Below, one piece after another: positions 2,650-57,511 of a stretch of DNA of 64,000 bases. Source of the DNA: Mayamaea pseudoterrestris (Eukaryota); assembly GCA_027923505.1 (NCBI GenBank), contig BROI01000012.1:124001-188000 (forward strand). The letters are read 5' to 3'. The notes under the pieces were generated by a model. It saw nothing but the letters and a program-made list of their open reading frames with translations. It was not told the origin of the DNA and made no database searches. How positions within the stretch are numbered: position 1 is the first letter of the stretch; every line of letters starts with the position of its first letter. A program made the translations under genes and the position numbers.

Positions 2650-3234
2650 GATCAGTAATGTCAACGAATCGAGTAGCAATAATGGTAGTATCTGGGCGCA
2701 TTGCAAGATTGAAAACTTTCCGTCGTGAGGCAACGTAGCGACAGTCAAAGTATTTCTTCTTTCCATACGTACCGATTGATCTCGTTTCTCCAGCGTGTTA
2801 CAATGAAAACTTCGCTTGTAAGCGGGCTACTTGAGCTAGGGCGATGCTTGCAAAAGATACGAGCGTCCACGGCGTGACGGCGCGATTAATGTGGATAAAA
2901 AGTCACCGCGGCTGCCTTGTCACTCCTTGAAAGTCTTCACGCTCAATGAATTTACTGAATGTCGCTTGAGAGAGCCTGCTGCAGTTTTAGAGGTTTGTTA
3001 AATTGATGCTGTTGCAGTCGCTTGCGGCAATTCGCTCATGGTCGAGGAGTGAGACTAACATGTTGTGAAAGTGTCGACGTGATGCGATCCTGTGAGTCGC
3101 ATCGTTACTGTCAGGTCATGGTGCGACACTATGCTCGCTCGTTGGCGATGAACCGTCCGTTTCAGTTTCACCATGGCGAAACGGAGGTGCATCATCTACT
3201 TTACAACACTCTACCAAAACGACGCAGTCAAGCA

Positions 3235-12153: not shown

Positions 12154-12195
<42 letters not shown>

Positions 12196-13238: not shown

Positions 13239-13532
13239 GGTGCTTTTGGTAGGACAAGGTATGCAGCCTTTCGTTGCTCCTTTAGGATTGTTTGGTGGAA
13301 CGCGTTGCTGGAACGCGTTATCTCGGTTCTTGGTGGTTTCGTTTGGCGAGCGGCGAGCGAGGCACGAGCGATTCGTTTAAGTAACCTTCCAATATGACGA
13401 GGCCGGCTTGCTGTCGCTTAAGTAAGACGGTTTCGCCAAGTGTGGCGAGATTCACCGCTGCGATTTTTGTAGCTCACCCGATCTCACAACGCAACGTTGC
13501 ATTGCAAACCATCGACTCTCTACTGTTACACC

Positions 13533-16793: not shown

Positions 16794-16799
16794 TAAACT

Positions 16800-17392
16800 T
16801 CTCGACCAGTCTCTGCCAGCAGATGCCTTGACATTTAATTGCCGATATAACATGCCGTGTATACACCCCAAATCACACCAGAATGGTGCCAACATCCTTT
16901 TTTAGGCTACGCTTAAAAATGGTATGCCTGGCTGGTGTCTCAGAAGACTGGTGAGAACTTCTCACCAGTCTCATCCCGCAGATGCCTCGATATTCAACTG
17001 CCCATATAACCTGCCATATACGCACTTAAATCACACCAGAATGGTGCCAACATTATTATTCAGGCTGCGCTACACAATGGTATGCCTGGCTGGTGTCTCA
17101 GGAGACTGCAATGTGATTGGTGACAACTTGTCACCAGTCTCATCCCGCAGATGCCATGACAATTAAATGCCCCTACATCAGGCCCTGTAGGTGCCCAAAT
17201 TACACCAGAATGGTGCCAACACCATTATTCAGGCTGCGCTACAAGATGGTAGGCTTGGCTGGTGTCTCAGGGGATGGCAATGTATTTGGTGACAACTTTT
17301 CACCAGTCTCAGCCCACAGATGCCATGACATTCAGATGCCCCTACAGCAAGCCCTGTAGGTGCCCAAATTACACCAGAATGGTGCCAACACC
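16800..17392 (-). repeat. 169-bp satellite, ~3.5 copies, inverted relative to the large array and degenerate at its left edge
   Basis: Reverse complement of the 31.8-49.7 kb monomer (TGGTGACAACTTGTCACCAGTCTCA, CACCAGAATGGTGCCAACA, GCTGGTGTCTCAGG). Confidence 0.92.
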
Positions 17393-17778
17393 AGTAATTT
17401 GCTTCATCATTCCTGCCAGAATTCCAAGCGGCAATTTGCTTCCACATTCCTGCTGGAACTTCAAGCAGTGTTTTGCGGCTACATTCCTGCTGAAATTCCA
17501 AGCAGTAATTTGCTTCATCATTCCTGCCAGATTTCCAAGCGGCAATTTGCTTCCACATTCCTGCTGAAATTCCAAGCAGTAATTTGCTTCATCATTCCTG
17601 CCAGAATTCCAAGTGGCAATTTGCTTCCACATTCCTGCTGGAACTTCAAGCGGTGTTTTGTGGCTACATTCCTGCTGAAATTCCAAGCAGTAATTTGCTT
17701 CATCATTCCTGCCAGAAATCCAAGCGGCAATTTGCTTCCACATTCCTGCTGGATCTTCATGCAGTGTTTGCATCCACA
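17393..17778. repeat. 37-bp minisatellite with higher-order pattern A-B-C-A-B'-A-B-C-A-B-(C), ~10.4 units
   Basis: A=AGTAATTTGCTTCATCATTCCTGCCAGAATTCCAAGC, B=GGCAATTTGCTTCCACATTCCTGCTGGAACTTCAAGC, C=AGTGTTTTGCGGCTACATTCCTGCTGAAATTCCAAGC. Confidence 0.92.
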
Positions 17779-17790
17779 ACAGGTAAGAAT

Positions 17791-18383
17791 AATCTGCATC
17801 TTGTGGTGTTGACCATACCCACAGTGGAGGCCGTAACCATGGTGTCAGCCTCCAGGCAGTCCTTTTTGCACCATTTGAGACTCTGCACCTGTCAATGGCA
17901 TACCCTGGACATGGTTTGCCTGACTCATTGGGTATTTGGGTGGCCAGGGCATGGGGCGTTTGACAGGTCAGAATCTGCAACTTGTGGTGTTGGCCTTACC
18001 CACTGTGGAGGCCGTACCCATGGTGTCAGCCTCCAGGCAGTCCTTTTTGCACCATTTGAGACTCTGCACCTGTCAATGGCATACCCTGGACATGTTTTGC
18101 CTGACTCATTGTATATTTGGGTGGCCAGGGCGTGGGGCATTTGACAGGGACGAATCTGCAACTTGTGGTGCTGGCCATACCCATAGTGGAGGCCGTACCC
18201 ATGGTGTCAGCCTCCAGGCAGTCCTTTTTGCATCATTTGAGACTCTGCACTTGTCAATGGCATACCCTGGACATGTTTTGCCTGACTCTTTGGGTATTTG
18301 GGTGGCCAGGGCATGGGGCGTTTGACAGGGAAGAATCTGCAACTTGTGGTGTTAACCATATCCACGGTGGAGGCCGTACCCAT
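17791..18383. repeat. 181-bp satellite family B, ~3.3 copies
   Basis: AATCTGCA.CTTGTGGTG at 17791, 17972, 18153 and 18334 (period 181). Confidence 0.93.
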
Positions 18384-19095
18384 TGTGTGCTGAGTCCAGC
18401 CATATTGTTGATTTCATGAAACGGTCAATCAGGCAGCCCTGGTTTGCATTTCAATCTTTTCCTTAAATGTCAACCCCCGCTGTCATGCGCCAGACTGTCA
18501 TGCCATTGAAAGTGACCCACAGAGGGCCTCCACGGCACCTGACTTGCATGGTTAGATGCACCATTGTGTGCTGAGTCCAGCCAAATTGTTGAATTCATGA
18601 AACGGTTAATCAGGCAGCCCTGGTTTGCATTTCAATCTTTTCCTCCAGTGACAACCCCCGCTGTCTTGCGCCAGACTGTCATGCCATTGAAAGTGACCCA
18701 CAGAGGGCCTCCACGGCACCTGTCTTGCATGGTTAGATGCGCCATTGTGTGCTGAGTCCAGCCATATTGTTGAATTCATGAAACGGTCAATCAGGCATCC
18801 CTGGTTTGCATTTCAATCTTTTCCTCCAGTGACAACCCCCGCTGTCATGCGCCAGACTGTCATGCCATTGAAAGTGACCCACAGAGGGCCTCCACGGCAC
18901 CTGTCTTGCATGGTTAGATGCGCCATTGTGTGCGGAGTCCAGCCATATTGTTGAATTCATGAAACGGTCGATGAGGCAGCCCTGGTTTGCATTTCAATCT
19001 TTTCCTCAAGTGACAACCCCCGCTGTCATGCGCCAGACTGTCATGCCATTGAAAGTGACCCACAGAGGGGCCTCCACGGCACCTGTCTTGCATGG
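18380..19095. repeat. 181-bp satellite family C, ~4 copies, not collinear with family B
   Basis: CCATTGTGTGC.GAGTCCAGCC at 18380, 18561, 18742 and 18923 (period 181); joins family B through a CCAT microhomology. Confidence 0.93.
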
Positions 19096-31797: not shown

Positions 31798-34700
31798 TTC
31801 TGGTGTAATTTGGGCACCGACAGGGCCTGCTGTAGGAGTGAAATTCATAGCATCTGCGGGCGTTGGCACAAGTGGTGTCAAAATGTCCCTGAGACACCAG
31901 CCAAACCTACCATCTTGTAGCCCAGCCTGAATAATGATGTTGGCACCGTTCTTGTTGTAATTTGGGCACCGACAGGGCTTGCTGGGCATTAATACATTGG
32001 CAGGTGACAAGTTGTCACCAAATACATTGGCATCCCCTGAGACACCAGCCAAGCTTACCATCATGTAGCGCAGCCTAAATAATGAAGTTGGCACCTTTCT
32101 GGTGTAATTTGGGCACCAACAGGGCCTGCTGTAGGGGCGTCTGAATGTCACGGCATCTGCGGGCTGAGACTGGTGACAAGTTGTCACCAAATACATTGCC
32201 ATCCCCTGAGACACCAGCCAAGCCTACCATCTTGTCGCCCAGCCTGAATAAAAATGTTGCCACCATTCTGGTGTATTTTGGGCACCAACAGGGCCTGCAG
32301 TAGAGGCGTTTGACTGTCACGGCATCTGCGGGCTGAGACTGGTGACAAGTTGTCACCAAATGCATTGCCATCCCCTGAGACACCAGCCAAGCCTACCATC
32401 ATGTAGCGCATTCTAAATAATGATGTTGGCACCATTCTGGTGTAATTTGGGCACCTACAGGGCCTGCTGTAGGGGCGTTGGAATGTCATGGCATCTACGG
32501 GCTGAGACTGGTGACAAATTGTCACCAAAGACATTGCCATCCCCTGAGACACCAGCCAAGCCTACCATCTTGTTGCCCAGCCTGAATAATAATGTTGCCA
32601 CTATTCTGGTGTATTTTGGGCACCAACAGGGCCTGCTGTAGGGGCGTTAGAATGTCACGGCATCTGCAGGCTGAGACTGGTGACAAGTTGTCACCAAATA
32701 CATTGCCATCCCCTGAGACACCAGCCAAGCCTACCATCATGTAGCGCAGCCTGAAAAATGATGTTGGCACCATTATGGTGTAATTTGGGCACCTACAGGG
32801 CCTGCTGTTGTCATGGCATCTGCAAGCTGAGACTGGTGACAAGTTGTCACCAAATACATTGCCATCCCCTGAGACACCAGCCAAGCCTACCATCTTGTCG
32901 CCCAGCCTGAATAAAAATGTTGGCACCATTCTGGTGTATTTTGGGCACCGACAGGGCCGGTTGTAGGGGCGTTGGAATGTCATGGCATCTGCAGGCTGAG
33001 ACTGGTGACAAGTTGTCCTCAAACACATTGCCATCCCCTGAGACACCAGCCAAGCTTACCATCTTGTAGGGCAGCCTGAATCATGATGTTGGCACCATTC
33101 TGGTGTATTTTGGGCACCAACAGGGCCTGCTGTAAGGGCGTTGGAATGTCATGGCATCTGCGGGCTGAGACTGGTGACAAGTTGTCACCAAATACATTGC
33201 CATCCCCTGAGACACCAGCCAAGCCTACCATCTTGTTGCCCAGCCTGAATAATGATGTTGGCACCATTCTGGTGTATTTTGGGCACCGACAGGGCCTGTT
33301 GTAGGGGTGTTGGAATGTCATGGCATCTGCGGGCTGAGACTGGTGACAAGTTGTCACCAAATACATTGCCATCCCCTGAGACATCAGCCAAGCCAACCAT
33401 CTTGTAGCCCAGCCTAAATAATGATGTTGGCACCATTCTGGTGTAATTTGGGCACCTACAGGGCCTGCTGTAGGGGCGTTGGAATGTCATGGCATCTGCG
33501 GGCTGAGACTGGTGACAAGTTGTCACCAAATACATTGCCATCCCCTGAGACACCAGCCAAGCTTACCATCATGTAGCGCAGCCTGAATAATGATGTTGGC
33601 ACCATTATGGTGTAATGTGGGCACCTACAGGGCCTGCTGTAGGGGCGTTGGAATGTCATGGCATCTGCGGGCTGAGACTGGTGACAAGTTGTCACCAAAT
33701 ACATTGCCATCCCCTGAGACACCAGCCAAGCTTACCATCTTGTAGCGCAGCCTGAATAATGATGTTGGCACCATTATGGTGTAATTTGGGCACCTACAGG
33801 GCCTGCTGTAGGGGCGTTGGAATGTCATGGCATCTGCGGGCTGAGACTGGTGACAAGTTGTCACCAAATACATTGCCATCCCCTGAGACACCAGCCAAGC
33901 TTACCATCTTGTAGCGCAGCCTGAATAATGATGTTGTCTCAATTCTGGTTTAATTTGGGCACCGACAGGGCTTGCTGTAGGGGCGTTGGAATGTCATGGC
34001 ATCTACGGGCTGAGACTGGTGACACCTTGTCACCAAATACATTGGCATCCCCTGAGACACCAGCCAAGCTTACCATCATGTAGCGCAGCCAAAATAATGA
34101 AGTTGGCACCATTCTGTTGTAATTTGGGCACCGACAGGGCTTGCTGTAGGGGCGTTTGACTGTCACAGCATCTGCGGGCTGAGACTGGTGACACCTTGTC
34201 ACCAAATACATTGGCATCCCCTGAGACACCAGCCAAGCTTACCATCATGTAGCTCAGCCTAAATAATAAAGTTGGCACCATTCTGTTGTAATTTGGGCAC
34301 CGACAGGGCCTGCTGTAGGGGCATCTGAATGTCACGGCATCTGCGGGCTGAGACTGGTGACAAGTTGTCACCAAATACATTGCCATCCCCTGAGACACCA
34401 GCCAAGCCTACCATCATGTAGCGCATTCTGAATAATGATGTTGGCACCATTCTGTTGTAATTTGGGCACCTACAGGGCCTGCTGTAGGGGCATTGGAATG
34501 TCATGGCATCTGCGGGCTGAGACTGGTGACAAGTTGTCACCAAATACATTGCCATCCCCTGAGACACCAGCCAAGCTTACCATCTTGTAGCGCAGCCTGA
34601 ATAATGATGTTGGCTCATTCCTGGTGTAATTTGGGCACCGACAGGGCTTGCTGTAGGGGCGTTTGAATGTCATGGCATCTGCGGGCTACGACTGGTGACA

Positions 34701-35532
34701 AGTTGTCACCAAATACATTGCCATCCCCTGAGACACCAGCAAAGCCTACCATCTTGTATCCCAGCCTTAATAATGTTGCCACCATTCTGGTGTATTTTGG
34801 GCACCGACAGGGCCTGCTGTAAGGGCGTTGGAATGTCACAGCATCTGCAGGCTGAGACTGGTGACAAGTTGTCACCAAATACATTGCCATCCCCTGAGAC
34901 ACCAGCCAAGCTTACCATCTTGTAGCGCAGCCTGAATAAAAATGTTGGCACCATTCTGGTGTATTTTGGGCACCGACAGGGCCTGTTGTAGGGGCGTTGG
35001 AATGTCATGGCATCTGCAGGCTGAGACTGGTGACAAGTTGTCACCAAATACATTGCCATCCCCTGAGACACCAGCCAAGCTTACCATCATGTAGCGCAGC
35101 CTGAATCATGATGTTGGCACCATTCTGGTGTATTTTGGGCAACAACAGGGCCTGCTGTAAGGGCGTTGGAATGTCACAGCATCTGCAGGCTGAGACTGGT
35201 GACAAGTTGTCACCAAATACATTGCCATCCCCTGAGACACCAGCCAAGCCTACCATCTTGTCGCCCAGCCTGAATAAAAAATGTTGGCACCATTCTGGTG
35301 TATTTTGGGCACCGACAGGGCCTGTTGTAGGGGCGTTGGAATGTCATGGCATCTGCAGGCTGAGACTGGTGACAAGTTGTCACCAAATACATTGCCATCC
35401 CCTGAGACACCAGCCAAGCTTACCATCATGTAGCGCAGCCTGAATCATGATGTTGGCACCATTCTGGTGTATTTTGGGCAACGACAGGGCCTGCTGTAAG
35501 GGCGTTGGAATGTCACAGCATCTGCAGGCTGA
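31798..35532 (+). repeat. 169-bp satellite array, left arm (~22 monomers)
   Basis: Consensus CTGAGACTGGTGACAAGTTGTCACCAAATACATTGCCATCCCCTGAGACACCAGCCAAGC...GGCACCATTCTGGTGTAATTTGGGCACCTACAGGGCCTGCTGTAGGGGCGTTGGAATGTCATGGCATCTGCGGG; the 169 period also appears in the ORF track offsets. Confidence 0.97.
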
Positions 35533-35845
35533 TTGTAACTTGTAAATCAAATCGTTGCACCTTTCGCTTGTAGCTGTCCTTGGATGGCCAATCCAAGCTT
35601 GCAGTTGCTACAATACGAGAGACGAATAAATCGCTTTCTTAACTCTTCAAGCTTAGTAACTCTGCTTGTTTCTACTCTCTATCGCACTAGTTTCAGCAAT
35701 ATACTCGTTGAATCGCTTCGAAGCCGTCGCTGCCACGCATCACGCGATCGTGAGGCTGTGGTGAGCCGCGAGTGCCGCTGTGTCACCCTATCGGACATTC
35801 GGTGTGACTTGCCCGATTTTCGCTGTTTTCGTTCACATCCTGCAA
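35533..35845 (-). repeat. 3' LTR (313 bp)
   Basis: TTGTAACTTG...CATCCTGCAA; identical to 41805-42117 except C35660 vs G41932, as far as can be seen by eye. Confidence 0.95.
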
Positions 35846-35853
35846 CTCCCCTC
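35846..35853 (-). other. Polypurine tract
   Basis: CTCCCCTC on + (GAGGGGAG on the element strand) directly abuts the 3' LTR. Confidence 0.8.
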
Positions 35854-35862
35854 AAGTCATAC

Positions 35863-38800
35863 CTAATAGTTCGATTCCTTGAAAAGCAGGTTCTTTAAGT
35901 GCTTGCTTGCCGTTGCCCGCGGAAGAAACTTGGTAAGTACATCCGCCGGGTTTGTCGTTCCCATGATGTGGTTGAAATTAATAATTCCCGCCGCAATCGC
36001 TTCGCGTACACGGTGAAATGCCAGTGCATTGTGTCGCTTCGTCAGACTAGAGTGCGGTAAGTTACTGCTTTGCGTTACCGACTTGTTGTCTCCAAACATC
36101 CATGAAGGTCCGTCGAGCGGAACTCCCAACATGCGTAGCGTGAAGCGGAGATCCATGATCTGCTCCGTGCTCACTCTCGCTGCTACAAACTCCGAGCCGT
36201 ACGTCGCCGTCTCGACCGTCGCTTGGCGTTTCGAAAACCAATCGACGACTGTTCCATTCAACATGTGTAGCATGCCCATCGCTGCCCGTCCCGTCGTGTA
36301 ATCGTGGTACAGGTTTGCATCTTCAAACGTTGACATTCGCACCGCCTTGCCGCGCGGCGTGGGCATGTTCCACGGAAGCTCTTCGCAGATCTTGCCGTAC
36401 ACACTGTAGTCCCAATCCATCTTGTCAACTGTCGCGTATCGCTCGTCCGTTGGAATCGAAACGTTGAATCGAATCGCTCCATCCGGGTATCGTCGTAAGT
36501 ATCCGCAAATATGCTTCAACCGTTCCAAGTGCCCCGCTCGTGGCGCAGCTCGGAATCTCCCCATAGTCATGACAGCGCAGTGAATGTCGAATCGACATAA
36601 ACTTACTGCCCATTGCAACGCACCAATTATCGATTGATACTTCGCAATTCCGTCGTCGTCAAGTTCTTTCGTTTCGTCGAGTTCCGGATGATCGCCGTCG
36701 CGTAGTGGACTTGTCTGCGGTCGCGGTTCCTCGCCGAACATTTCTTTGTAGTTCGCTAGTAGCCTCGTGACGTACTTCTTCGCTCCGAAGCAGAGTACGC
36801 CGTCGTCGTCTCGCCAAACGTCTGCGCCCAAATGATATGCCAATGGACCGACGCCCTTCAACTTGTAGTTGTAGTTCTCAATTAAAAGATCCGTTAGTTC
36901 CTTTGGATTCTTCATCGCTATCGCTAAATCGTCGACATACACACAAACGTATTCGTAGTGCGTGCCTTTATCGCGCATCCACACGTCCGGTTCTGCGATA
37001 CACGGCGTGAAGCCAATGTCGCGGAGCGTGTCTGCAAAGTGCTCGTGCCAGCGTGCGCCTGACGTGCGAAGACCGTATAATGCCTTCACGATCGTGAGCG
37101 TGTGACCCTCGAGCTCCCCGAACTCCGGACCTGCCACGATATAAACCTTCTCTTTCGTTTTCGCTTCCAAGTATGCGTTGCCGACGTCAGCTGCCCACAG
37201 TTCCAGACCGTTGAGTTCCGCTAACATCGCTACCATTCGTAGACTTCGCAATGACACAACGCCCGAGTAAACTGAATCCTTCGGCGGCTCTGTCATATGT
37301 CCTCCTGCGACGAGTCGTGCTTTCCGTCGCAAATCGTGCTTGACATCGAATATCATGTGCACGTTTATTCGTTTCCATGGCGCCGGCATAACCTTACCGA
37401 CTCCTTGATCTGCGAACGTGTCGTAATCATTTATCTGATTTAATTCCGTTCGAATCGCATCCGTCCACAGCGTGTTGCCGTTGATCTCGTCGAGAGCTTT
37501 CGCATCTTTATAATTGCGCGGCAGTCTTACGCCAAATTTGTAGCGTACGCCGTTTGCTTTCGATTTTCGTTTCGCTGCTGTCACCATCTGTCGAAACTTC
37601 TTTCGCTTCCGAGTGTAATGTTCCAGCTGCTTCCATCCTGGCTTGTCGAGTAAGCTGTGCTTGAGTCCATACTCTGCGATCGTTATCGGATCGTCCTTCT
37701 TCATGATCGCGAGAGGCTCCCACGTCGTCGTTCCGTCGGTCCATTCGACGAGAACGTTACTTGAACTTCCCTTGTATGTCGGATCGTTCGGTTTCAGATT
37801 AAGCTCGTGTCCGATTACTTTCGTGAATACCCACTGAGTCGCCGGATCGTTTCGTATATCTTCGTCCATCTGTCGTTCGATTAAATCCGACAGTTCGTTG
37901 TAACTTATTAAGTCTTTCGCTGGCTCCTCTCCCATCTGGATCAGGAAACCTTTCGTCGTTTCGAGTAGCTCGTTATCGCGTACTTCGATATATTCGCATA
38001 CAGTCGCTCGCATTTTCTGACCGTTTTCGTGTTCCCTTACGAACGTGCGTCCGATGAGTTCGCTTGGAGAGAACAGAGGGCATTTATTCCCTGATTCTTG
38101 CTCAGCCCTTCTGAAGAACTTCGCTGGTACGTTGGCGTGGTTCGCCATCGGAATCGTTTCGTCGTCGTTTCCTTCGTAGTTGTCGTGACTACTTTCTGTC
38201 GCATTCGTGCTATGATAGCGTCCTGTCGCGAGATCTGGAGTTTCAAAATTTCGCTCGCTTGCGCGTGTAGCTTCTTCAGAAATCTCCCCTCCAGACTCAG
38301 GGAAGGAAGGCAACTCTCGTGGTAACAAGTAGCTGCGCGAGACCACGTTGGAGCGCGGAATCGCCTGAAGCGTGTCGTCCGTCAGAACGAGAAAAGTCAT
38401 GTGCGGACCGCTATTCTCTGCGATGCCCACGAATCGGCCGTTGCCAGATCGTACCGCCGAGGGAAAACTCCCCTGCGCCTCAAACGTGACCGGTTCCCAC
38501 CACTTGAAATGTAACAAAGGCGAAATATCCGGCAAATTTCCGAACGCAACTTCCGTTGGAGTGCGCCATCCCAGCGATTTTGTCGCGAGGACGTTCAGAA
38601 TCATGATTACGAATTTAATCAGCAAAACCCAGCAATGCCCTGGCGAACCCGAATCTCGTTGGAGGTTCTCCATCATTGGCTTAATGTGCGACGTGTGACG
38701 TTCGCATGGATTTTGTTCTGGGTGACCCGGTTCTGTGGTCACTTGAGGAATATTGTACATCCGACAGAGATCCCTCACAGCCTTGCCAGTCTCCGACTTG

Positions 38801-41655
38801 GCATTGTCGCTGAGCAGTCCGTTAGGAGCGCCCACTTCGCGGATAAAATCCTCTAACGCGTTTGACATGTCGCTCTCCGACTTCATCGGGTAGCCGCGCG
38901 TGTAAAAACTTTCTCGTCCAACAAAGAGCTGCATCTTAGTAGCTCCCCCATGCCCTAGAATTCCATCATCCAAAGCTGGCGTGTCAGAGTGTATCGTGTC
39001 CGTGGCGAATAGTTCGCGCAACCGCTGAACGTTTGCGGCCGGAAATCTTGATTTTGTGAGGTGTCGAAATGGTAATCGTGGATGTTCGCTGAGATGATAC
39101 CATGCCTCCGTGTGACGTAAAGTCTGTTGAACGCGCTCAGTCGGGACCCATCCGAGGTACGGCCGAAGAGCATTATAGTCCGGTTCCTTGCTTCGTAGCT
39201 TCCGCAAATTAACGCGTGAAAACTGAGCGTGTCGCACGCACCGATTGATCAGTACGTCAAGTTCGTCGCCAGTGCGTGTCGGCGTGTGACGATTGCGGTG
39301 CGTGATACCGTCATCGTCGAATCGTTCGTCAAAAGATCCATAATCGTGATCGCGTTCGTCGAAATCGTCGTGCGCGTGCTCGACATCGTAAACAGTCGGG
39401 TCCCACGGCACGTCCGACGTCATGATGACAGTCGGATACTTATCCAAATCATCGAACGTGGGTTTCGTCACGTCCAAGTATACCAGGCCATCGCGAATCG
39501 CCAATGGCAAAACGTAGCCTCCAATGTTCGTCGTAATTCGTTGCGTTCCGCCAAACATGGTCGGAATATCGTCGACACGATGTCCCATTGCGCGCAATTG
39601 ATTCGGGCAATGAATCGTCGGTCCGTCTCGCTTTAAAGCATACTGGTGACACAAAAGCAGAATGGTTTCGCCACTAAGGGTCTTAGCCAGTCCAGCTGCA
39701 GTGCCAATCTTGAGAGCTGGGACAATATGATCGTCAATACCAGTCACATCCACCTCGGCGTTCGTTTCCGAAACGACGAGCATGTCTCCTCCGCATAAGC
39801 CTCCGTTCGCGCCGCTGTCGATGAGCGCGCCTTCGTTGATCCGCTCGTAGTGTGCGCGATTGACGCGCATACGACGATGCATGTTGAAGCTGAATGTACC
39901 TCGTCCGGTGTTATCAGTCGTCAACGATCCTGTCACTTGCTGAGTTGTAGTACTCGCATTGTTCGCTTGCAGAACCGATCGTGCAGCCGTTTGGACTGAC
40001 ATTCCACTATTGCCTGGCTGAATATTAATCGTGCCAGGAACGCTTGCGTGATCGTTCGCTACAGATTCCGTCGCGTGACGCTCTTGATGCGCCGCGTTGA
40101 CTTGCGTCTGCGTCGTAGCCGTGCCTCGTTGGTTGCGCGGTCGCCATCCGTTTTCGGGTGTCTTGGGCGCCGTCGCACGCTTGTCCTTCAACTGCTTTCG
40201 CTGATCGAACTTCATCTCCAACCAGACTTCATCCTTCACGCTCGCGTGAGGTTTCTTCATGATCGCTGCGAATCGTTCCGCCGATAAGCCGCTTGGAGTC
40301 GCGCCGCCATTGCCGCCGCCGCCTCCTTTCGTTCCACTAGACTGCGCTTGATTGATTGTGCGCTTAGTCTTCGTCGTCGATGGATGTTTCTTGTCATACT
40401 TGATGCAGCACTCTTCTAAGTGCGCGTACAACTGCGCGAAATTGTCTTCCGAGTCGTGTTGCCCCATGTGTTTCTTGATGGCAATCATTCCGTCAAAACC
40501 TGCTAGCGAGGCGCTGAATCCAGTGTGCTCAGAGAAAGCGTCGCGTAGCATGTCGTATCGTTGTAAACCTGTCAGAGCTTCTGCGTCCATTTCGAGCAGC
40601 CAGATGACTTTCTTGTAGAACAGTGCGAGAAATTCGATCGTCGGCCTTGACCACTTCTCGGTCAGCCGCATTCCCTGCAGTTCCGTTCGCGCGCGTTCCT
40701 TCTCGATGTGAGCAGTAGCGCCTTCTTCGTATCGCGTTCGCAATCGTTGGTAGACTTCGCGTCCGTCCATCGTCTTCTTGAACTGCTGTACTGCGAGTGA
40801 TGCAGACGGAGTTCGACAGTGCGTGAGAAAGATTCTGTATACAAACACATTCTTCTTTGCATACGCCTTCTGTTCCTTCGGTCCCTTTTCCTTCGGGTCA
40901 TAATCGTCGTCAAAGACTTCGTGGAAGTCGTGCAATGTAGCGATGACTTTCAACTCGGAAATCCACTGTTTCCACGAGGAATCCAGCTTCATTTCTTTAC
41001 AATCCTTCGCCGAGAACTTGATAGACTTCGTAAATTGGTCTGAATACTTCTCGTCGTCTTCGTCGTCACCGAGGTCCAGTACGGATGTCGGTGACTGCTT
41101 CGTGTCCACGTCCACGCTCGTCGGTGGCACCTTGTCGGCCGAGTCGGGCTTCGACTCGTCGCCTTCGTTCGTTAGCGTGGAGTCCTTGGATTCGTCCTTC
41201 TTGGATTCCGTTTCGCTTTCTTTCACTGGAGGTTTCGCTCCGCTTCCGCTGCCCACGCTCGCAATGTTGCGCGCTTGGACTCGTTCCTTCGCTCGTGCTG
41301 TGACGAACGTCGCCAGCGTTTCGGTGGTCAGTTGCGACCATGTCTTGATGTCCGGCGACTCTTGCGCCAAATACCATTCGATCGCGTTCGTGATCGTGCG
41401 TTGTTTCATCTTCGTTAGCGAGTGTTCGCTCGTTTCCTGCGTGACATTGTCGCCATCGTCAGTCGTCGTCGTTGTCGTCGTCGTGACGTTCCACTTCGTC
41501 GCGAAATCGTCGTACTCCATCTCGATCAATTGCGTAAGCGATTCTACTCCGAGTTCGTCGAATAACTCCTTGAACTGAGGATCTTGGAAAACGCCTACGT
41601 TCTCTTCGTAAACATGCGCGAAAGCCGCGTCCTTTTGCGCGCGAGTTTCCGCCAT
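35863..41655 (-). CDS. Copia gag-pol polyprotein (Gag, aspartic protease, integrase, chromodomain-like module, RT, RNase H)
   Basis: First ATG at 41655 (MAETRAQ). PR: ALIDSGA. IN: FATDT...LLSDNA...QNPCER. RT: KARLVAGG, ADVGNAYL, ALYGLRTSG, YVDD. RH: TFEDA, SEFVAA, GDNKS, NPADVLTK. IN before RT is the Copia domain order. Confidence 0.97.
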   Translation of the reverse strand: MAETRAQKDAAFAHVYEENVGVFQDPQFKELFDELGVESLTQLIEMEYDDFATKWNVTTTTTTTTDDGDNVTQETSEHSLTKMKQRTITNAIEWYLAQESPDIKTWSQLTTETLATFVTARAKERVQARNIASVGSGSGAKPPVKESETESKKDESKDSTLTNEGDESKPDSADKVPPTSVDVDTKQSPTSVLDLGDDEDDEKYSDQFTKSIKFSAKDCKEMKLDSSWKQWISELKVIATLHDFHEVFDDDYDPKEKGPKEQKAYAKKNVFVYRIFLTHCRTPSASLAVQQFKKTMDGREVYQRLRTRYEEGATAHIEKERARTELQGMRLTEKWSRPTIEFLALFYKKVIWLLEMDAEALTGLQRYDMLRDAFSEHTGFSASLAGFDGMIAIKKHMGQHDSEDNFAQLYAHLEECCIKYDKKHPSTTKTKRTINQAQSSGTKGGGGGNGGATPSGLSAERFAAIMKKPHASVKDEVWLEMKFDQRKQLKDKRATAPKTPENGWRPRNQRGTATTQTQVNAAHQERHATESVANDHASVPGTINIQPGNSGMSVQTAARSVLQANNASTTTQQVTGSLTTDNTGRGTFSFNMHRRMRVNRAHYERINEGALIDSGANGGLCGGDMLVVSETNAEVDVTGIDDHIVPALKIGTAAGLAKTLSGETILLLCHQYALKRDGPTIHCPNQLRAMGHRVDDIPTMFGGTQRITTNIGGYVLPLAIRDGLVYLDVTKPTFDDLDKYPTVIMTSDVPWDPTVYDVEHAHDDFDERDHDYGSFDERFDDDGITHRNRHTPTRTGDELDVLINRCVRHAQFSRVNLRKLRSKEPDYNALRPYLGWVPTERVQQTLRHTEAWYHLSEHPRLPFRHLTKSRFPAANVQRLRELFATDTIHSDTPALDDGILGHGGATKMQLFVGRESFYTRGYPMKSESDMSNALEDFIREVGAPNGLLSDNAKSETGKAVRDLCRMYNIPQVTTEPGHPEQNPCERHTSHIKPMMENLQRDSGSPGHCWVLLIKFVIMILNVLATKSLGWRTPTEVAFGNLPDISPLLHFKWWEPVTFEAQGSFPSAVRSGNGRFVGIAENSGPHMTFLVLTDDTLQAIPRSNVVSRSYLLPRELPSFPESGGEISEEATRASERNFETPDLATGRYHSTNATESSHDNYEGNDDETIPMANHANVPAKFFRRAEQESGNKCPLFSPSELIGRTFVREHENGQKMRATVCEYIEVRDNELLETTKGFLIQMGEEPAKDLISYNELSDLIERQMDEDIRNDPATQWVFTKVIGHELNLKPNDPTYKGSSSNVLVEWTDGTTTWEPLAIMKKDDPITIAEYGLKHSLLDKPGWKQLEHYTRKRKKFRQMVTAAKRKSKANGVRYKFGVRLPRNYKDAKALDEINGNTLWTDAIRTELNQINDYDTFADQGVGKVMPAPWKRINVHMIFDVKHDLRRKARLVAGGHMTEPPKDSVYSGVVSLRSLRMVAMLAELNGLELWAADVGNAYLEAKTKEKVYIVAGPEFGELEGHTLTIVKALYGLRTSGARWHEHFADTLRDIGFTPCIAEPDVWMRDKGTHYEYVCVYVDDLAIAMKNPKELTDLLIENYNYKLKGVGPLAYHLGADVWRDDDGVLCFGAKKYVTRLLANYKEMFGEEPRPQTSPLRDGDHPELDETKELDDDGIAKYQSIIGALQWAVSLCRFDIHCAVMTMGRFRAAPRAGHLERLKHICGYLRRYPDGAIRFNVSIPTDERYATVDKMDWDYSVYGKICEELPWNMPTPRGKAVRMSTFEDANLYHDYTTGRAAMGMLHMLNGTVVDWFSKRQATVETATYGSEFVAARVSTEQIMDLRFTLRMLGVPLDGPSWMFGDNKSVTQSSNLPHSSLTKRHNALAFHRVREAIAAGIINFNHIMGTTNPADVLTKFLPRATASKHLKNLLFKESNY

Positions 41656-41804
41656 CGTTGTCGTCGTGACAATGTTCTTGCTATCACCTGCGGAACTTTC
41701 CGGGCCAAGAACCAACGTGCGTCCACGTTACTTCGTAAATCAATAGTACTCTTCGTCGATAAAGTCTCTATGCCGAGGCAATGAGTCTCAAGACAGTGTT
41801 AATC

Positions 41805-42117
41805 TTGTAACTTGTAAATCAAATCGTTGCACCTTTCGCTTGTAGCTGTCCTTGGATGGCCAATCCAAGCTTGCAGTTGCTACAATACGAGAGACGAATA
41901 AATCGCTTTCTTAACTCTTCAAGCTTAGTAAGTCTGCTTGTTTCTACTCTCTATCGCACTAGTTTCAGCAATATACTCGTTGAATCGCTTCGAAGCCGTC
42001 GCTGCCACGCATCACGCGATCGTGAGGCTGTGGTGAGCCGCGAGTGCCGCTGTGTCACCCTATCGGACATTCGGTGTGACTTGCCCGATTTTCGCTGTTT
42101 TCGTTCACATCCTGCAA
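41805..42117 (-). repeat. 5' LTR (313 bp)
   Basis: Direct repeat of 35533-35845 at offset 6272. Confidence 0.95.
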
Positions 42118-45100
42118 CTGAGACTGGTGACAAGTTGTCACCAAATACATTGCCATCCCCTGAGACACCAGCCAAGCCTACCATCTTGTCGCCCAGCCTG
42201 AATAATGATGTTGGCACCATTCTGGTGTATTTTGTGCACTGACAGGGCCTGTTGTAGGGGTGTTGGAATGTCATGGCATCTGCGGGCTGAGACTGGTGAC
42301 AAGTTGTCACCAAATACATTGCCATCCCCTGAGACACCAGCCATGCCTACCATCTTGTAGCCCAGCCTGAATAATAATGTTGGCACCATTCTGGTGAAAT
42401 TCGGGCACCGACAGGGCCTGCTGTAGGGGCGTTGGAATGTCACGGCATATGTGGGCTGAGACTGGTGACAAGTTGCCACCAAATACATTGCCATCCCCTG
42501 AGACACCAGCCAAGCCTACCATCATGTAGCGCATTCTAAATAATGATGTTGGCACCATTCTGTTGTAATTTGGGCACCTACAGGGCCTGCTGTAGGGGCG
42601 TTGGAATGTCATGGCATCTACGGGCTGAGACTGGTGACAAGTTGTCACCAAATACATTGCCATCCCCTGAGACACCAGCCAAGCCTACCATCTTGTAGCC
42701 CAGCCTAAACAATAATGTTGCCACCATTCTGGTGTATTCTGGGCACCGACAGGGCCTGTTGTAGGGGTGTTGGAATGTCATGGCATCAGTAGGCTGAGAC
42801 TGGTGACAAGTTGTCACCAAATACATTGCCATCCTCTGAGACACCAGCCAAGCTTACCATCTTGTAGCGCAGCCTAAATAATGATGTTGGCACCATTCAG
42901 GTGTATTTTGGGCACCTACAGGGCTTGCTGTAAGGGCGTTTGAATGTCACGGCAACTGCGGGGTGAGACTAGTGACAAGTTGTCACCAAATACATTGCCA
43001 TCCCCTGAGACACCAGCCAAGCCTACCATCATGTAGCGCAGCCTGAATAATGATGTTGGCACCATTATGGTGTAATTTGGGCACCGACAGGGCCTGCTGT
43101 AGGGGCGTTGGAATGTCACGGCATCTGCGGGCTGAGACTGGTGACAAGTTGTCACCAAATACATTGCCATCCCCTGAGACACCAGCCAAGCTTACCATTT
43201 TGTAGCGCATCCTAAATAATGATGTTGGCACCATTCTTGTGTATTCTGGGCACCTACAGGGCCTGCTGTAGGGGCATTGGAATGTCATGGCATCTGCGGG
43301 CTGAGACTGGTGACAAGTTGTCAACAAATACATTGGCATCCCCTGAGACACCAGCCAAGCTTACCATCTTGTAGCGCAGCCTAAATAATAATGTTGGCAC
43401 CATTCAGGTGTATTTTGGGCACCTACAGGGCTTGCTGTAAGGGCATTTGAATGTCACGGCAACTGCGGGGTGAGACTAGTGACAAGTTGTCACCAAATAC
43501 ATTGCCATCCCCTGAGACACCAGCCAAGCCTACCATCTTGTCGCCCAGCCTGAATAAAAATGTTGGCACCATTCTGTTGTAATTTGGGCACCTACAGGGC
43601 CTGCTGTAGGGGCGTTGGAATGTCATGGCATCTACGGGCTGAGACTGGTGACAAGTTGTCACCAAAGACATTGCCATCCCCTGAGACACCAGCCAAGCCT
43701 ACCATCTTGTTGCCCAGCCTGAATAATAATGTTGCCACTAATCTGGTGTATTTTGGGCACCAACAGGGCCTGCTGTAGGGGCGTTAGAATGTCACGGCAT
43801 CTGCAGGCTGAGACTGGTGACAAGTTGTCACCAAATACATTGCCATCCCCTGAGACACCAGCCAAGCCTACCATCATGTAGCGCAGCCTGAATAATGATG
43901 TTGGCATTATTATGGTGTAATTTGGGCACCTACAGGGCCTGCTGTTGTCATGGCATCTGCAAGCTGAGACTGGTGACAAGTTGTCACCAAATACATTGCC
44001 ATCCCCTGAGACACCAGCCAAGCCTACCATCTTGTCGCCCAGCCTGAATAAAAATGTTGGCACCATTCTGGTGTATTTTGGGCACCGACAGGGCCGGTTG
44101 TAGGGGCGTTGGAATGTCATGGCATCTGCAGGCTGAGACTGGTGACAAGTTGTCACCAAACACATTGCCATCCCCTGAGACACCAGCCAAGCTTACCATC
44201 ATGTAGCGCAGCCTGAATCATGATGTTGGCACCATTCTGGTGTATTTTGGGCACCAACAGGGCCTGCTGTAAGGGCGTTGGAATGTCACAGCATCTGCGG
44301 GCTGAGACTGGTGACAAGTTGTCACCAAATACATTGCCATCCCCTGAGACACCAGCCAAGCCTACCATCTTGTTGCCCAGCCTGAATAATGATGTTGGCA
44401 CCATTCTGGTGTATTTTGGGCACCGACAGGGCCTGTTGTAGGGGTGTTGGAATGTCATGGCATCTGCGGGCTGAGACTGGTGACAAGTTGTCACCAAATA
44501 CATTGCCATCCCCTGAGACATCAGCCAAGCCTACCATCTTGTAGCCCAGCCTAAATAATGATGTTGGCACCATTCTGGTGTAATTTGGGCACCTACAGGG
44601 CCTGCTGTAGGGGCGTTGGAATGTCATGGCATCTGCGGGCTGAGACAGGTGACAAGTTGTCACCAAATACATTGCCATCCCCTGAGACACCAGCCAAGCT
44701 TACCATCATATAGCGCAGCCTGAAGAATGATGTTGGCACCATTATGGTGTAATGTGGGCACCTACAGGGCCTGCTGTAGGGGCGTTGGAATGTCATGGCA
44801 TCTGCGGGCTGAGACTGGTGACAAGTTGTCACCAAATACATTGCCATCCCCTGAGACACCAGCCAAGCTTACCATCTTGTAGCGCAGCCTGAATAAGGAT
44901 GTTGGCACCATTATGGTGTAATTTGGGCACCTACAGGGCCTGCTGTAGGGGCGTTGGATTGTCATGGCATCTGCGGGCTGAGACTGGTGACAAGTTGTCA
45001 CCAAATACATTGCCATCCCCTGAGACACCAGCCAAGCCTACCACCTTGTAGCCCAGCCTGAATAATAATGTTGCCACCATTCTGGTGTAATTTGGGCACC

Positions 45101-48100
45101 TACAGGGCCTGCTGTAGGGGCGTTGGAATGTCATGGCATCTGCGGGCTGAGACTGGTGACAAGTTGTCACCAAATACATTGCCATCCCCTGAGACACCAG
45201 CCAAGCTTACCATCATATAGCGCAGCCTGAATAATGATGTTGGCACCATTATGGTGTAATTTGGGCACCTACAGGGCCTGCTGTAGGGGCGTTGGAATGT
45301 CATGGCATCTGCGGGCTGAGACTGGTGACAAGCTGTCACCAAATACATTGCCATCCCCTGAGACACCAGCCAAGCTTACCATCTTGTAGCGCAGCCTGAA
45401 TAATGATGTTGGCACCATTATGGTGTAATTTGGGCACCTACAGGGCCTGCTGTAGGGGCGTTGGAATGTCATGGCGAGACTGGTGACAAGTTGTCACCAA
45501 ATACATTGCCATCCTCTGAGACACCAGCCAAGCTTACCATCTTGTAGCGCAGCCTGAATCATGATGTTGGCACCATTCAGGTGTATTTTGGGCACCTACA
45601 GGGCTTGCTGTAAGGGCATTTGAATGTCACGGCAACTGCGGGGTGAGACTAGTGACAAGTTGTCACCAAATACATTGCCATCCCCTGAGACACCAGCCAA
45701 GCCTACCATCATGTAGCGCAGCCTGAATAATGATGTTGGCACCATTATGGTGTAATTTGGGCACCGACAGGGCCTGCTGTAGGGCGTTGGAATGTCATGG
45801 CATCTGCGGGCTGAGACTGGTGACAAGTTGTCACCAAATACATTGCCATCCCCTGAGACATCAGCCAAGCCTATCATCTTGTAGCCCAGCCTGAATAATG
45901 ATGTTGGCACCATTCTGGTGTAATTTGGGCACCAAATGGGCCTGCTGTAAGGGCGTTGGAATGTCACAGCATCTGCAGGCTGAGACTGGTGACAAGTTGT
46001 CACCAAATACATTGCCATCCCTGAGACATCAGCCAAGCCTACCATCTTGTAGCCCAGCCTGAATAATGATGTTGGTACCGTTCTGGTGTAATTTTAACAC
46101 TGACAGGGCCTGCTGTAGGGGCATTGGAATGTCATGGCATCTGCGGGCTGAGACTGGTGACTAGTTGTCACCAAATACATTGGCATCCCCTGAGACACCA
46201 GCCAAGCTTACCATCATGTAGCGCAGCCTGAAAAATGAAGTTGGCACCATTCTGGTGTAATTTGGGCACTGACACGGCCTGCTGTAGGTGCGTTAGAATG
46301 TCATGGCATCTGTGGGCTGAGTCTGGTGACAAGTTGTCACCAAATACATTGCCATCCCCTGAGACACCAACCAAGCCTACCATCTTGTAGCCCAGCCGGA
46401 ATAATGATGTTGGCAACATTCTGGTGTAATTTGGGCACCAACAGGGCCTGCTGTAGGGGCGTTGGAATGTCACGGTATCTGCCGGCTGAGTCTGGTGACA
46501 AGTTGTCACCAAATACATTGCTATCCGCTGAGACACCAGCCAAGCTTGCCATCTTGTAGCGCATTCTAAATAATGATGTTGGCACCATTCTGGTGTAATT
46601 TGGGCACCTACAGGGCCTGCTGTAGGGGCGTTGGAATGTCACGGCATCTGCGGGCTGAGACTGGTGACAAGTTACATTGCCATCCCCTTGAGACACCAGC
46701 CAAGCCTACTATCTTGTAGCGCAGCCTGAATAATAATGTTGCCACCATTCTGGTGTAATTTGGGCACCGACAGGGCCTGCTGTAGGGGCGTTGGAATGTC
46801 ACGGCATCTGCGGGCTGAGACTGGTGACAAGTTGTCACCAAATTCATTGCCATCCCCTGAGACACCAGCCAAGCTTACCATCTTGTAGCGCATCCTGAAT
46901 AATGATGTTGGCACCATTCTTGTGTAATTTGGGCACCTACAGGGCCTGCTGTAGGGGCGTTGGAATGTCATGGCATCTGCGGGCTGAGACTGGTGACAAG
47001 TTGTCACCAAATACATTGCCATCCCCTGAGACACCAGCCAAGCTTACCACCTTGTAGCCCAGCCTGAATAATGATGTTGGCACCTTTCTGGTGTAATTTG
47101 GGCACCGACAGGGCCTGCTGTAGGGGCGTTGGAATGTCATGGCATCTGCGGGCTGAGACTGGTGACAAGTTGTCACCAAATACATTGCCATCCCGTAAGA
47201 CATCAGCCAAGCTTACCCTCTTGTAGCGTAGCCTGAATAATGATGTTGGCACCATTCTGGTGTAATTTGGGCACCTACAGGGCCTGCTGTAGGGGCGTTG
47301 GAATGTCATCGCATCTGCGGGCTGAGACTGGTGACAAGTTGTCACCAAATACATTGCCATCCCCTGAGATATCAGCCAAGCCTACCATTTTGTAGCCCAG
47401 CCTGAATAATGATGTTGGCACCGTTCTGGTGTAATTTGGGCACCTACAGGGCCTGCTGTAGGTGTGTTTGAATGTCATGGGCACCTACAGGGCCTGCTGT
47501 AGGGGCGTTGGAATGTCATGGCGAGACTGGTGACAAGTTGTCACCAAATACATTGCCATCCTCTGAGACACCAGCCAAGCTTACCATCTTGTAGCGCAGC
47601 CTGAATCATGATGTTGGCACCATTCAGGTGTATTTTGGGCACCTACAGGGCTTGCTGTAAGGGCATTTGAATGTCACGGCAACTGCGGGGTGAGACTAGT
47701 GACAAGTTGTCACCAAATACATTGCCATCCCCTGAGACACCAGCCAAGCCTACCATCATGTAGCGCAGCCTGAATAATGATGTTGGCACCATTATGGTGT
47801 AATTTGGGCACCGACAGGGCCTGCTGTAGGGCGTTGGAATGTCATGGCATCTGCGGGCTGAGACTGGTGACAAGTTGTCACCAAATACATTGCCATCCCC
47901 TGAGACATCAGCCAAGCCTATCATCTTGTAGCCCAGCCTGAATAATGATGTTGGCACCATTCTGGTGTAATTTGGGCACCAAATGGGCCTGCTGTAAGGG
48001 CGTTGGAATGTCACAGCATCTGCAGGCTGAGACTGGTGACAAGTTGTCACCAAATACATTGCCATCCCTGAGACATCAGCCAAGCCTACCATCTTGTAGC

Positions 48101-49695
48101 CCAGCCTGAATAATGATGTTGGTACCGTTCTGGTGTAATTTTAACACTGACAGGGCCTGCTGTAGGGGCATTGGAATGTCATGGCATCTGCGGGCTGAGA
48201 CTGGTGACTAGTTGTCACCAAATACATTGGCATCCCCTGAGACACCAGCCAAGCTTACCATCATGTAGCGCAGCCTGAAAAATGAAGTTGGCACCATTCT
48301 GGTGTAATTTGGGCACTGACACGGCCTGCTGTAGGTGCGTTAGAATGTCATGGCATCTGTGGGCTGAGTCTGGTGACAAGTTGTCACCAAATACATTGCC
48401 ATCCCCTGAGACACCAACCAAGCCTACCATCTTGTAGCCCAGCCGGAATAATGATGTTGGCAACATTCTGGTGTAATTTGGGCACCAACAGGGCCTGCTG
48501 TAGGGGCGTTGGAATGTCACGGTATCTGCCGGCTGAGTCTGGTGACAAGTTGTCACCAAATACATTGCTATCCGCTGAGACACCAGCCAAGCTTGCCATC
48601 TTGTAGCGCATTCTAAATAATGATGTTGGCACCATTCTGGTGTAATTTGGGCACCTACAGGGCCTGCTGTAGGGGCGTTGGAATGTCACGGCATCTGCGG
48701 GCTGAGACTGGTGACAAGTTACATTGCCATCCCCTTGAGACACCAGCCAAGCCTACTATCTTGTAGCGCAGCCTGAATAATAATGTTGCCACCATTCTGG
48801 TGTAATTTGGGCACCGACAGGGCCTGCTGTAGGGGCGTTGGAATGTCACGGCATCTGCGGGCTGAGACTGGTGACAAGTTGTCACCAAATTCATTGCCAT
48901 CCCCTGAGACACCAGCCAAGCTTACCATCTTGTAGCGCATCCTGAATAATGATGTTGGCACCATTCTTGTGTAATTTGGGCACCTACAGGGCCTGCTGTA
49001 GGGGCGTTGGAATGTCATGGCATCTGCGGGCTGAGACTGGTGACAAGTTGTCACCAAATACATTGCCATCCCCTGAGACACCAGCCAAGCTTACCACCTT
49101 GTAGCCCAGCCTGAATAATGATGTTGGCACCTTTCTGGTGTAATTTGGGCACCGACAGGGCCTGCTGTAGGGGCGTTGGAATGTCATGGCATCTGCGGGC
49201 TGAGACTGGTGACAAGTTGTCACCAAATACATTGCCATCCCGTAAGACATCAGCCAAGCTTACCCTCTTGTAGCGTAGCCTGAATAATGATGTTGGCACC
49301 ATTCTGGTGTAATTTGGGCACCTACAGGGCCTGCTGTAGGGGCGTTGGAATGTCATCGCATCTGCGGGCTGAGACTGGTGACAAGTTGTCACCAAATACA
49401 TTGCCATCCCCTGAGATATCAGCCAAGCCTACCATTTTGTAGCCCAGCCTGAATAATGATGTTGGCACCGTTCTGGTGTAATTTGGGCACCTACAGGGCC
49501 TGCTGTAGGTGTGTTTGAATGTCATGGCATCTGCGGGCTGAGACTGGTGACAAGTTGTTACCAATCACATCGCAGTCTACTGAGACAATATTATTAAACC
49601 TACCACCTTGTGGCGTCGCCTAAATAATGATGTTGGCACCATTCCGGTGTAATATGGGTGTATACATGGCTTGCTGTAGAGGCGTTTGAATGTCA
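42118..49695 (+). repeat. 169-bp satellite array, right arm (~45 monomers), including a 2,047-bp tandem duplication
   Basis: Same monomer and orientation as the left arm; degenerates at 49560-49695. Confidence 0.97.
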
Positions 49696-56806: not shown

Positions 56807-57511
56807 GACTTCGAGTGGTAGATGAGATTCGGAGACGAAATGTATGAAAACTGATAATTGTGTGGTTGATCGGTAAGTGTCGGTGTAGTAGGATGGATTG
56901 AAAAGCTTTTTCATGTCAAGGCGATTGACAGTGTTGCACATTTGATACGATTGGATATCAATGAAATGACATTTTAGACTATTGCCCGAGTTTTTTCTGT
57001 CGGCTACATAGCCGGAAATGGCATCGGAGTAGCAACAAAAGTGTCACTGGCAACTTTTACTTAAGCAATGATCGTTGAGGACGTGATGTCGAAGGCAGGC
57101 TGGCTCCCTACGAGGTACGCTGAGAAACGCTTACAACTCCGCAGAAGAGTTTTCACTGCCAATTTCGCTATCATGCTCTTCAGGAAAGGATAGTTTAGTT
57201 TGGTAAAATGTTGCATTACTTGACTCTTTGCTGAGATGTTTATTCCACACAGTCCGTGGACTGGGTTCCAGCTCAACTACAAATAAATGGTAAAGCAGCA
57301 ATGCTCGTTACCTCGGTGTATTTGAAGCAAGTATCATTGCAGAGAAGGGATTAATTTGGTAGATCTATTTGGCAATATGATGCGATAACTCACCAACACT
57401 CGTCCTGGTACAGTGCCATACCTGTTGACGAGCCAGGTCACTGAAAATAAAGTCGCAGCGAAACTAGCCGATGACCACGAACACCTTGGAATCCAAAACA
57501 CAACGAGCACC

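Follow-up and report, generated by a model that had tools for sequence, protein, structure and literature searches.

The integrase of a Ty1/copia retrotransposon of the pennate diatom Mayamaea pseudoterrestris very probably carries a chromo-fold domain. The element, a CoDi-type retrotransposon with long terminal repeats (LTRs), lies on the minus strand of the window, that is, of the whole 64,000-nucleotide stretch that was analysed (contig BROI01000012.1, positions 124,001 to 188,000), where it interrupts a 169-bp satellite. Judging from predicted structure, we put the probability of a chromo-fold domain on this CoDi-type Copia integrase at roughly 0.9; by analogy with other chromodomain-bearing elements, the probability that it guides insertion into silent chromatin is put at roughly 0.5. 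Where a retrotransposon lands sets the harm that it does, above all when the genome is small and packed with genes, as in diatoms. To our knowledge, chromodomain-guided integration has been shown experimentally only for chromoviruses of the Gypsy type, and for Copia there is a sequence observation of 2009 of which we know of no follow-up. A chromodomain on a diatom Copia integrase has been in print since that year and the present locus is a well-supported new example; the details added for this known kind are a confident fold, the state of the aromatic cage, a barrel in tandem and the scale of the family.

The proteins of the element are encoded in one frame, with the following features:

35863-41727, minus strand: single gag-pol open frame, 1954 codons from stop to stop; first ATG (codon 25) at 41653-41655, stop codon at 35863-35865.
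39808-39819, minus strand: aspartic protease motif DSGA, residue 637.
38719-38904, minus strand: integrase catalytic core (residues 942-1003), matched by Pfam rve at E 2.5e-4 with 21.7 bits, short of the 32.6-bit cut-off.
37849-38079, minus strand: predicted SH3/Tudor-like beta-barrel with its long helix (residues 1217-1293), forming the N-terminal half of the module; from the AlphaFold2 model and VIA-align matches.
37645-37839, minus strand: predicted chromo-fold domain, residues 1297-1361; three strands and a C-terminal helix; strands 1 and 2 are joined by a long loop peculiar to the family; encloses 37690-37833.
37549-37626, minus strand: basic linker LEHYTRKRKKFRQMVTAAKRKSKANG (TRKRKK...KRKSK), from the chromo domain to the reverse transcriptase.
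36751-37386, minus strand: reverse transcriptase, residues 1448-1659; Pfam RVT_2, E 3.1e-25.

The order protease (DSGA, which we take as the marker of the active site), integrase (rve) and reverse transcriptase (RVT_2) within one frame assigns the element to Ty1/copia. The chromovirus order, in which a Gypsy-type reverse transcriptase and RNase H precede the integrase and its chromodomain, was not found, the integrase being upstream of the reverse transcriptase and the latter being of the RVT_2 type. The preliminary description of this DNA had placed a chromodomain-like motif between the integrase core and the reverse transcriptase, and it is indeed there: its peptide (residues 1299-1346) is the exact reading of the minus strand at 37690-37833, between rve and RVT_2, and the corresponding plus-strand frame holds a stop. 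The whole C-terminal extension of the integrase, consisting of a low-complexity linker, the SH3/Tudor-like barrel, the chromodomain and a basic tail, lies upstream of the reverse transcriptase. The integrase's own C-terminal barrel was presumably at about residues 1070-1130, where it was placed by Copia motifs, apart from the barrel at 1217-1293. The linker LEHYTRKRKKFRQMVTAAKRKSKANG is basic in the family consensus too and is a possible nuclear localisation signal. The closest annotated protein (P0153, also from M. pseudoterrestris) is 99% identical over the module and 100% identical over the reverse transcriptase region. It has 1602 residues against the 1954 codons found here, with its chromo segment starting at residue 940 against 1292, and the annotation apparently leaves out a portion of the gag end. 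The nearest Atlas clusters were labelled Bacillariophyta.

In order to obtain a structural model, residues 1210-1385 (176 residues) were submitted to AlphaFold2 together with 105 relatives. The model had a mean predicted local distance difference test score (pLDDT) of 91.2 and a predicted template modelling score of 0.60, and it contained two domains: at model residues 12-84 a barrel that comes with a long helix, and at model residues 92-147 a unit of three strands and a helix. The strands of the second domain spanned model residues 92-99, 115-120 and 125-129 and were followed by helices at 130-147, so that the predicted unit is a three-stranded antiparallel sheet packed on a C-terminal helix, as expected of a chromo fold. 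Folded alone, this domain gave a pLDDT of 86.2. A homodimer prediction for it returned a score of 0.00 and weighs neither way.

The model was compared with 48,161 representatives of the PDB using VIA-align, which is independent of Foldseek. Twenty-six chains reached Z>=5 and none reached Z>=8. Eleven of the top 12 chains, all of them over model residues 84-154 and with Z 5.6-6.5, bear titles that name chromo, chromoshadow, CHD or cpSRP43 proteins; the remaining one was GEN-1, which also holds a chromodomain. The scores included 6.5 for the HP1alpha chromoshadow domain, 6.2 for Chd1, 5.8 for CHD4 and 5.7 for a Drosophila HP1 chromodomain, the last with a root-mean-square deviation (rmsd) of 1.9 A over 50 of 53 residues. 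Foldseek, given the domain by itself, listed 41 matches, 40 of them of chromo type (probability up to 1.00, target-normalised template modelling score 0.6-0.76, E 0.067-0.44). When the best 1000 Foldseek chains were looked at again with VIA-align, the 50 listed comprised 41 chromo-type chains (model 67-156), eight Tudor or Spindlin chains (model 1-87) and one meaningless superposition (22 A). In this second comparison the HP1 chromodomain 1kna scored Z 5.8, and 49 of 52 residues superposed at an rmsd of 1.7 A, with model residues 89-148 paired to chain residues 23-74. The two-domain model gave no Foldseek match at E<=0.001; its best matches were tandem-Tudor and tandem-chromo proteins with an rmsd above 11 A, so that the two-domain arrangement as a whole has no convincing match.

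The module belongs to a large family. When residues 1210-1385 were searched against 1.84 billion representative proteins, 1457 clusters were obtained at E<=0.001, 513 of them at E<=1e-10, and most of the best matches spanned all 176 residues, which means that the conserved unit exceeds the motif first noticed. A parallel search with the reverse transcriptase-RNase H region scored 8000 candidates, of which 2419 proteins reached E<=1e-20, and both halves of the module were recognised, with hidden Markov models built here, in all 120 reverse transcriptase relatives listed. The occurrence of the module in more than 1000 protein clusters suggests that sequence data rich in diatoms contain a major domain family that has gone unannotated. 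Conservation was counted over 292 aligned rows, the window protein included. Aromatic residues occupied position 1299 in 97%, position 1301 in 96%, position 1318 in 98% and position 1353 (Y1353) in 100% of them; H1307 was H in 96%, W1329 and W1365 were each W in 98%, and the E-P-L at 1337-1339 was retained in 94-97%. A chance resemblance, the segment being a mere spacer between integrase and reverse transcriptase, would fit the lack of Pfam and PDB sequence matches for the window protein. It is contradicted by the 1457 clusters, by positions kept at 93-100% over these rows, by the confident fold and by the nearly pure lists of chromo-type structures, and is scarcely credible.

Compared with HP1/Polycomb-type chromodomains, the family carries an insert of about nine conserved residues (H-x-G-P-L...Y-K-G-S-x-Y-N) in the loop between strands 1 and 2. 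Four distant relatives (P0087, P0178, P0180 and P0123) are without this long loop and resemble ordinary chromodomains. The family thus looks like a chromodomain into which a conserved loop has been inserted, and the loopless proteins may represent the ancestral form of the module. The three loop positions considered below were all kept in 260 and all altered in six of the 292 rows. The departures of the window copy in this loop (37755-37826, residues 1301-1324) were common to its 99%-identical twin P0153, despite the young and intact look of the element, and the function of the loop may be altered in this lineage.

One important question is whether the domain has the aromatic cage with which chromodomains hold methyl-lysine. 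In HP1 this pocket is formed by Y24, W45 and Y48 (Novikov et al. 2012, PMC3350952). W1299 lies at the position of Y24, as follows from the alignment ranges with 1kna, given above, and with 6mha (model 88-148 with chain residues 22-74), and W1329 lies at the position of W45 according to the chromo-box pattern. From the sequence, the classical cage would have aromatics at two of its three positions and lack the third, leaving aside the loop aromatics Y1318 and position 1323, which might complete a pocket. The turn between strands 2 and 3 reads T-D-G-T-T-T in the window copy and E-D-G-x-x-T in the family. Its length was compared with that of HP1 partly on what we take to be the length of the HP1 turn.

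Several results weigh against a chromodomain that reads silent chromatin, and those that concern the domain itself are the following. The window protein, searched whole or as three sub-segments, had no match to Pfam Chromo at E<=10. Among 105 relatives, three matched this family at E<=0.05 (one of them P0087), with 15.0-17.6 bits against a gathering cut-off of 25.1 bits, which none of them reached. No chromodomain was found among the PDB sequences with profiles of the family (alignment A2) or of the domain alone (A4). All structural scores were modest (Z<8, Foldseek E>0.001), which is usual for a domain of only about 55 residues, and the case for the chromo fold lies in the near purity of the lists of matches. 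Chromoshadow structures matched as well as chromodomains in both VIA-align and Foldseek. No aromatic residue occupies the Y48 position, the turn between strands 2 and 3 being three residues shorter, and the window copy has L, N and S at loop positions that the family keeps as G in 93%, P in 97% and an aromatic in 96% of the rows.

The preliminary description, which called the segment chromodomain-like and proposed to check it with HMMER against Pfam Chromo and with AlphaFold, was borne out as an observation and in part as an interpretation: AlphaFold2 and the PDB structure searches gave a chromo fold, the domain proved wider (37645-37839) than the motif, and the Pfam Chromo profile gave no match for the window protein. 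Direct comparison of the segment with PDB sequences by phmmer produced chance matches or nothing. Pfam Chromo is nevertheless the family matched by most relatives, albeit weakly (four of 106 at E<=1, and two of 43 domain-only pieces), and the nearest Atlas cluster bearing any Pfam family bears Chromo (score 0.75, a lead only).

Some of these results would suit a chromo fold that binds protein or nucleic acid, in the manner of a chromoshadow domain (by dimerising or by docking a host factor) or of a cpSRP43 domain (by taking up a basic peptide), and that does not read methyl-lysine; such a domain would promote the assembly of the integrase or attach it to a host tether, which is not necessarily heterochromatic. 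Chromoshadow domains dimerise and do not read histones, and the best single structural matches were of this type (HP1alpha with Z 6.5; Swi6 with a Foldseek probability of 1.00), the cpSRP43 chromodomains also ranking high. The third cage aromatic is missing, and most 'shadow' chromodomains are reported to retain W45 and to lack Y24 and Y48 (PMC3350952). Unlike that type, however, the family has an aromatic at the Y24 position in 97% of the 292 rows, and the conserved T-x-E-P-L that follows strand 2 resembles the classical and not the shadow motif described there (PMC3350952). Moreover, the list of 25 Pfam families matched by the 106 relatives at E<=1 is headed by Chromo and does not include Chromo_shadow. 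A role of this kind is possible, although we regard it as rather unlikely.

The second domain of the module, directly upstream of the chromo domain and missed in the preliminary description, was modelled with a pLDDT of 87-95 (residues 1217-1293). VIA-align matched it to Tudor and Spindlin domains with Z 5.1-5.6, the ERCC6-L2 Tudor domain giving Z 5.6 and an rmsd of 2.7 A over 58 of 58 residues; BAHCC1, Spindlin, SMN, SETDB1, KDM4A and PHF20L1 were also matched. Designed SH3, CarD and PRC barrels scored similarly, none of the 25 Pfam families on the list for these 106 relatives is of Tudor type, and the barrel consensus has few conserved aromatics. On the strength of the model we call these residues SH3/Tudor-like only. 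One conceivable role of the integrase tail is that of a two-part 'royal family' reader, in which Tudor-like barrel and chromodomain would together recognise a combined signature of silent repeats and steer the element into CpG-methylated satellites. We hold this proposal to be tentative and rather unlikely. If true, the two-part reader would be the Copia counterpart of the chromoviruses, built independently from a different set of domains, and its barrel might be the first of Tudor-like type known from Copia. A Tudor domain in a Gypsy element of Ectocarpus was called the first reported in a transposable element (2025, PMC12477816), so a Tudor-like barrel in Copia, if confirmed, would be a small addition.

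The structure of the element and of its insertion site is as follows:

35533-42119, minus strand: whole Ty1/copia (CoDi-type) LTR retrotransposon, 6587 bp; sole copy in the window (BLAST of the element against the window; repeat family D3).
41805-42119, minus strand: 5' LTR, a 315-bp identity stretch; termini TTG...CAA in plus-strand reading.
35533-35847, minus strand: 3' LTR, 315 bp; preceded on the element strand by a purine-rich tract (..GAGGGGAG).
35529-35532, no strand assigned: left copy of the target-site duplication CTGA; the right copy (42118-42121) overlaps the final 2 bases of the LTR identity stretch.
32003-35532, no strand assigned: left array of the 169-bp satellite, 21 copies; CpG observed/expected 0.26.
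42120-49695, also delimited as 42118-49695, no strand assigned: right array of the 169-bp satellite, about 45 copies; CpG observed/expected 0.29.

The direct LTRs are identical at 314 of 315 bases. Neither further copies nor solo LTRs of the element were detected within the 64-kb window, the self-BLAST matches being the element itself and its own two LTRs. Satellite monomers without an insertion read GCAGGCTGAGACTGG; the left flank ends in ..GCAGGCTGA before the LTR, and the right flank continues after the LTR with CTGAGACTGG. Since GCAGGCTGA and CTGAGACTGG rejoin the monomer GCAGGCTGAGACTGG, the satellite is continuous over the insertion except for the 4-bp CTGA duplication. Blackbeard, a CoDi element of diatoms, likewise has a 4-bp target-site duplication (PMC2806351). 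The element is apparently intact and inserted recently. That a Ty1/copia polyprotein sits inside satellite DNA, as had been proposed, was thus confirmed by the domain order and RVT_2, by the 169-bp arrays on both sides and by the CTGA duplication. The presumed primer-binding region just inside the 5' LTR (41770-41804, minus strand) reads GATTAACACTGTC...; the tRNA-Met-like motif TGGTATCAGAGC, known from many Copia elements, was not seen there by eye.

The CpG observed/expected ratio of the two satellite arrays (0.26-0.29) contrasts with that of the flanking gene regions (1.09-1.14) and of the element (1.54). The satellite consensus contains 3 CpG and 35 TpG+CpA, and among 48 monomers the CpG positions were about four times as variable as the others (0.163 vs 0.039 per base), many of the changes at CpG positions being G>C rather than transitions. 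Methylation of the satellite at CpG over a long time would fit this pattern, as would a young age of the element. A centromeric function of the 169-bp satellite was also considered, and it was dropped because nothing spoke for it.

With regard to targeting, the reading that we favour would proceed in three steps. The module would remain on the integrase after cleavage of the polyprotein; it would tether the pre-integration complex to a chromatin feature, most likely a histone tail that is methylated in silent chromatin rich in repeats; and new copies would consequently land in repeats such as the 169-bp satellite, sparing the genes of a compact genome, comparable to what is proposed for the MAGGY chromodomain. 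The one observed insertion, in a CpG-poor satellite, supports this. On the opposite side, to be added to the points above, are that the evidence for targeting is this single insertion, that the satellite, about 11 kb without the element, is an island amid ordinary genes (PPR, PBP-like, metallophosphatase, JmjC/cupin and GST), and that the module could instead remain on the reverse transcriptase after cleavage. Mapped CoDi insertions are reported as mostly intergenic, some very near genes and some inside other transposable elements (PMC2806351).

The same facts bear on a further alternative, namely that the module, alone or through its barrel-plus-chromo pair, reads a mark other than H3K9me or H3K27me, for example one of active chromatin, and that the satellite insertion is incidental or was kept because it is harmless. 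The chromodomains of Chd1 and CHD4, which are not known as H3K9me readers, scored as high as HP1, the cage deviates from the classical one, and the two-domain architecture resembles combinatorial readers such as the SETDB1 tandem Tudor and Spindlin. There is, in addition, one insertion only, and the CoDi insertions in the literature frequently lie close to genes (PMC2806351). Nothing in the data points to a particular alternative mark, however, and the single insertion observed is in a CpG-poor tandem repeat, so that we consider this alternative improbable.

Other parts of the window gave the following observations. A second repeat cluster (16795-19095), 13 kb upstream, consists of about 3.6 copies of a 169-bp unit followed by 37/111-bp and two different 181-bp arrays; by eye, the 169-bp unit has consensus motifs in common with the main satellite, in reverse orientation. 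A 1747-codon open frame at 57389-62629 (plus strand) has a weak C-terminal match to SpoU methylase (E 2.6e-4, below the cut-off), and the long frames at 640-2826, 3007-4749, 5055-6884 and 10680-13376 had no Pfam match at E<=0.001. Repeats make up about 19% of the 30.6-Mb assembly reported for M. pseudoterrestris and are chiefly Ty1-Copia (PMC9724779).

The preliminary description had held integrase chromodomains to be foreign to Copia and had left open whether the motif was known in diatom CoDi elements. The premise is outdated and the answer is yes: Llorens et al. (2009, PMC2774666) described a putative chromodomain at the integrase C-terminus of the diatom CoDi-A (CoDi-I) Copia elements and proposed its capture independently of chromoviruses. 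Ustyantsev et al. (2017, PMC5348765) made the same statement for 'CoDi-I' of Phaeodactylum; in the text supplements available for that paper neither the word CoDi nor the motifs of the family occurred. The paper in which CoDi1-7 were defined (Maumus et al. 2009, PMC2806351) nowhere contains the word chromodomain. Among the titles and abstract openings returned by a full-text literature search, none dealt with the function of a Copia chromodomain or with a barrel-plus-chromo pair. The present locus makes the 2009 proposal directly testable, since it offers an intact, apparently young copy, a confidently predicted two-domain module, the putative cage residues W1299 and W1329 and a natural insertion in a CpG-poor satellite.

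The element described here shares with CoDi-A/CoDi-I the diatom host, the order protease-integrase-reverse transcriptase and a chromo-like module behind the integrase, corresponding to the putative chromodomain reported at that C-terminus. The published elements are from Phaeodactylum and Thalassiosira and the present one is from Mayamaea; the upstream barrel, the predicted three-dimensional fold and the size of the family are not mentioned in the published accounts, as far as their passages on these elements go. From host, position and kind, and likening the two by description only, we infer that it is the same module and that the elements belong to the same clade.

Like MAGGY and the other Ty3/gypsy chromoviruses, the element has LTRs and a chromo-fold domain attached downstream of its integrase core, a domain proposed as a heterochromatin tether (PMC3350952); the MAGGY chromodomain binds H3K9me2/3 and its role in heterochromatin targeting is a proposal, as reported in the same paper. 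The chromoviruses belong to another superfamily, whereas here the integrase precedes a reverse transcriptase of the RVT_2 type and the domain is internal to the polyprotein, with a barrel ahead of it. The cage differs as well: the window element would have the first and second aromatics without the third, whereas group I chromoviruses are described as having all three and group II as lacking the first and usually the third (PMC3350952). Chronos, a Ty3/gypsy element of oomycetes, and Gypsy lineages of Ectocarpus are likewise independent captures of chromatin-reader domains by LTR elements of stramenopiles (PMC5348765, PMC12477816), differing in that those Gypsy elements are described with a single C-terminal reader and the Copia element of the window has a Tudor-like barrel and a chromodomain in tandem.

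Chromodomains of the HP1/Polycomb type (PF00385) resemble the predicted domain in having three strands and a helix and aromatics equivalent to Y24 and W45, and differ in that the module of the window falls below the Pfam threshold, has the loop insert and has a shortened turn without an equivalent of Y48. Finally, the integrase C-terminus of the yeast Ty1/copia elements Ty5 and Ty1 carries a targeting determinant and a nuclear localisation signal. In those elements the determinants are short peptide motifs that bind Sir4 or subunits of Pol III and not folded readers, whereas the position of the module and of its basic tail in the present element fits the same plan.

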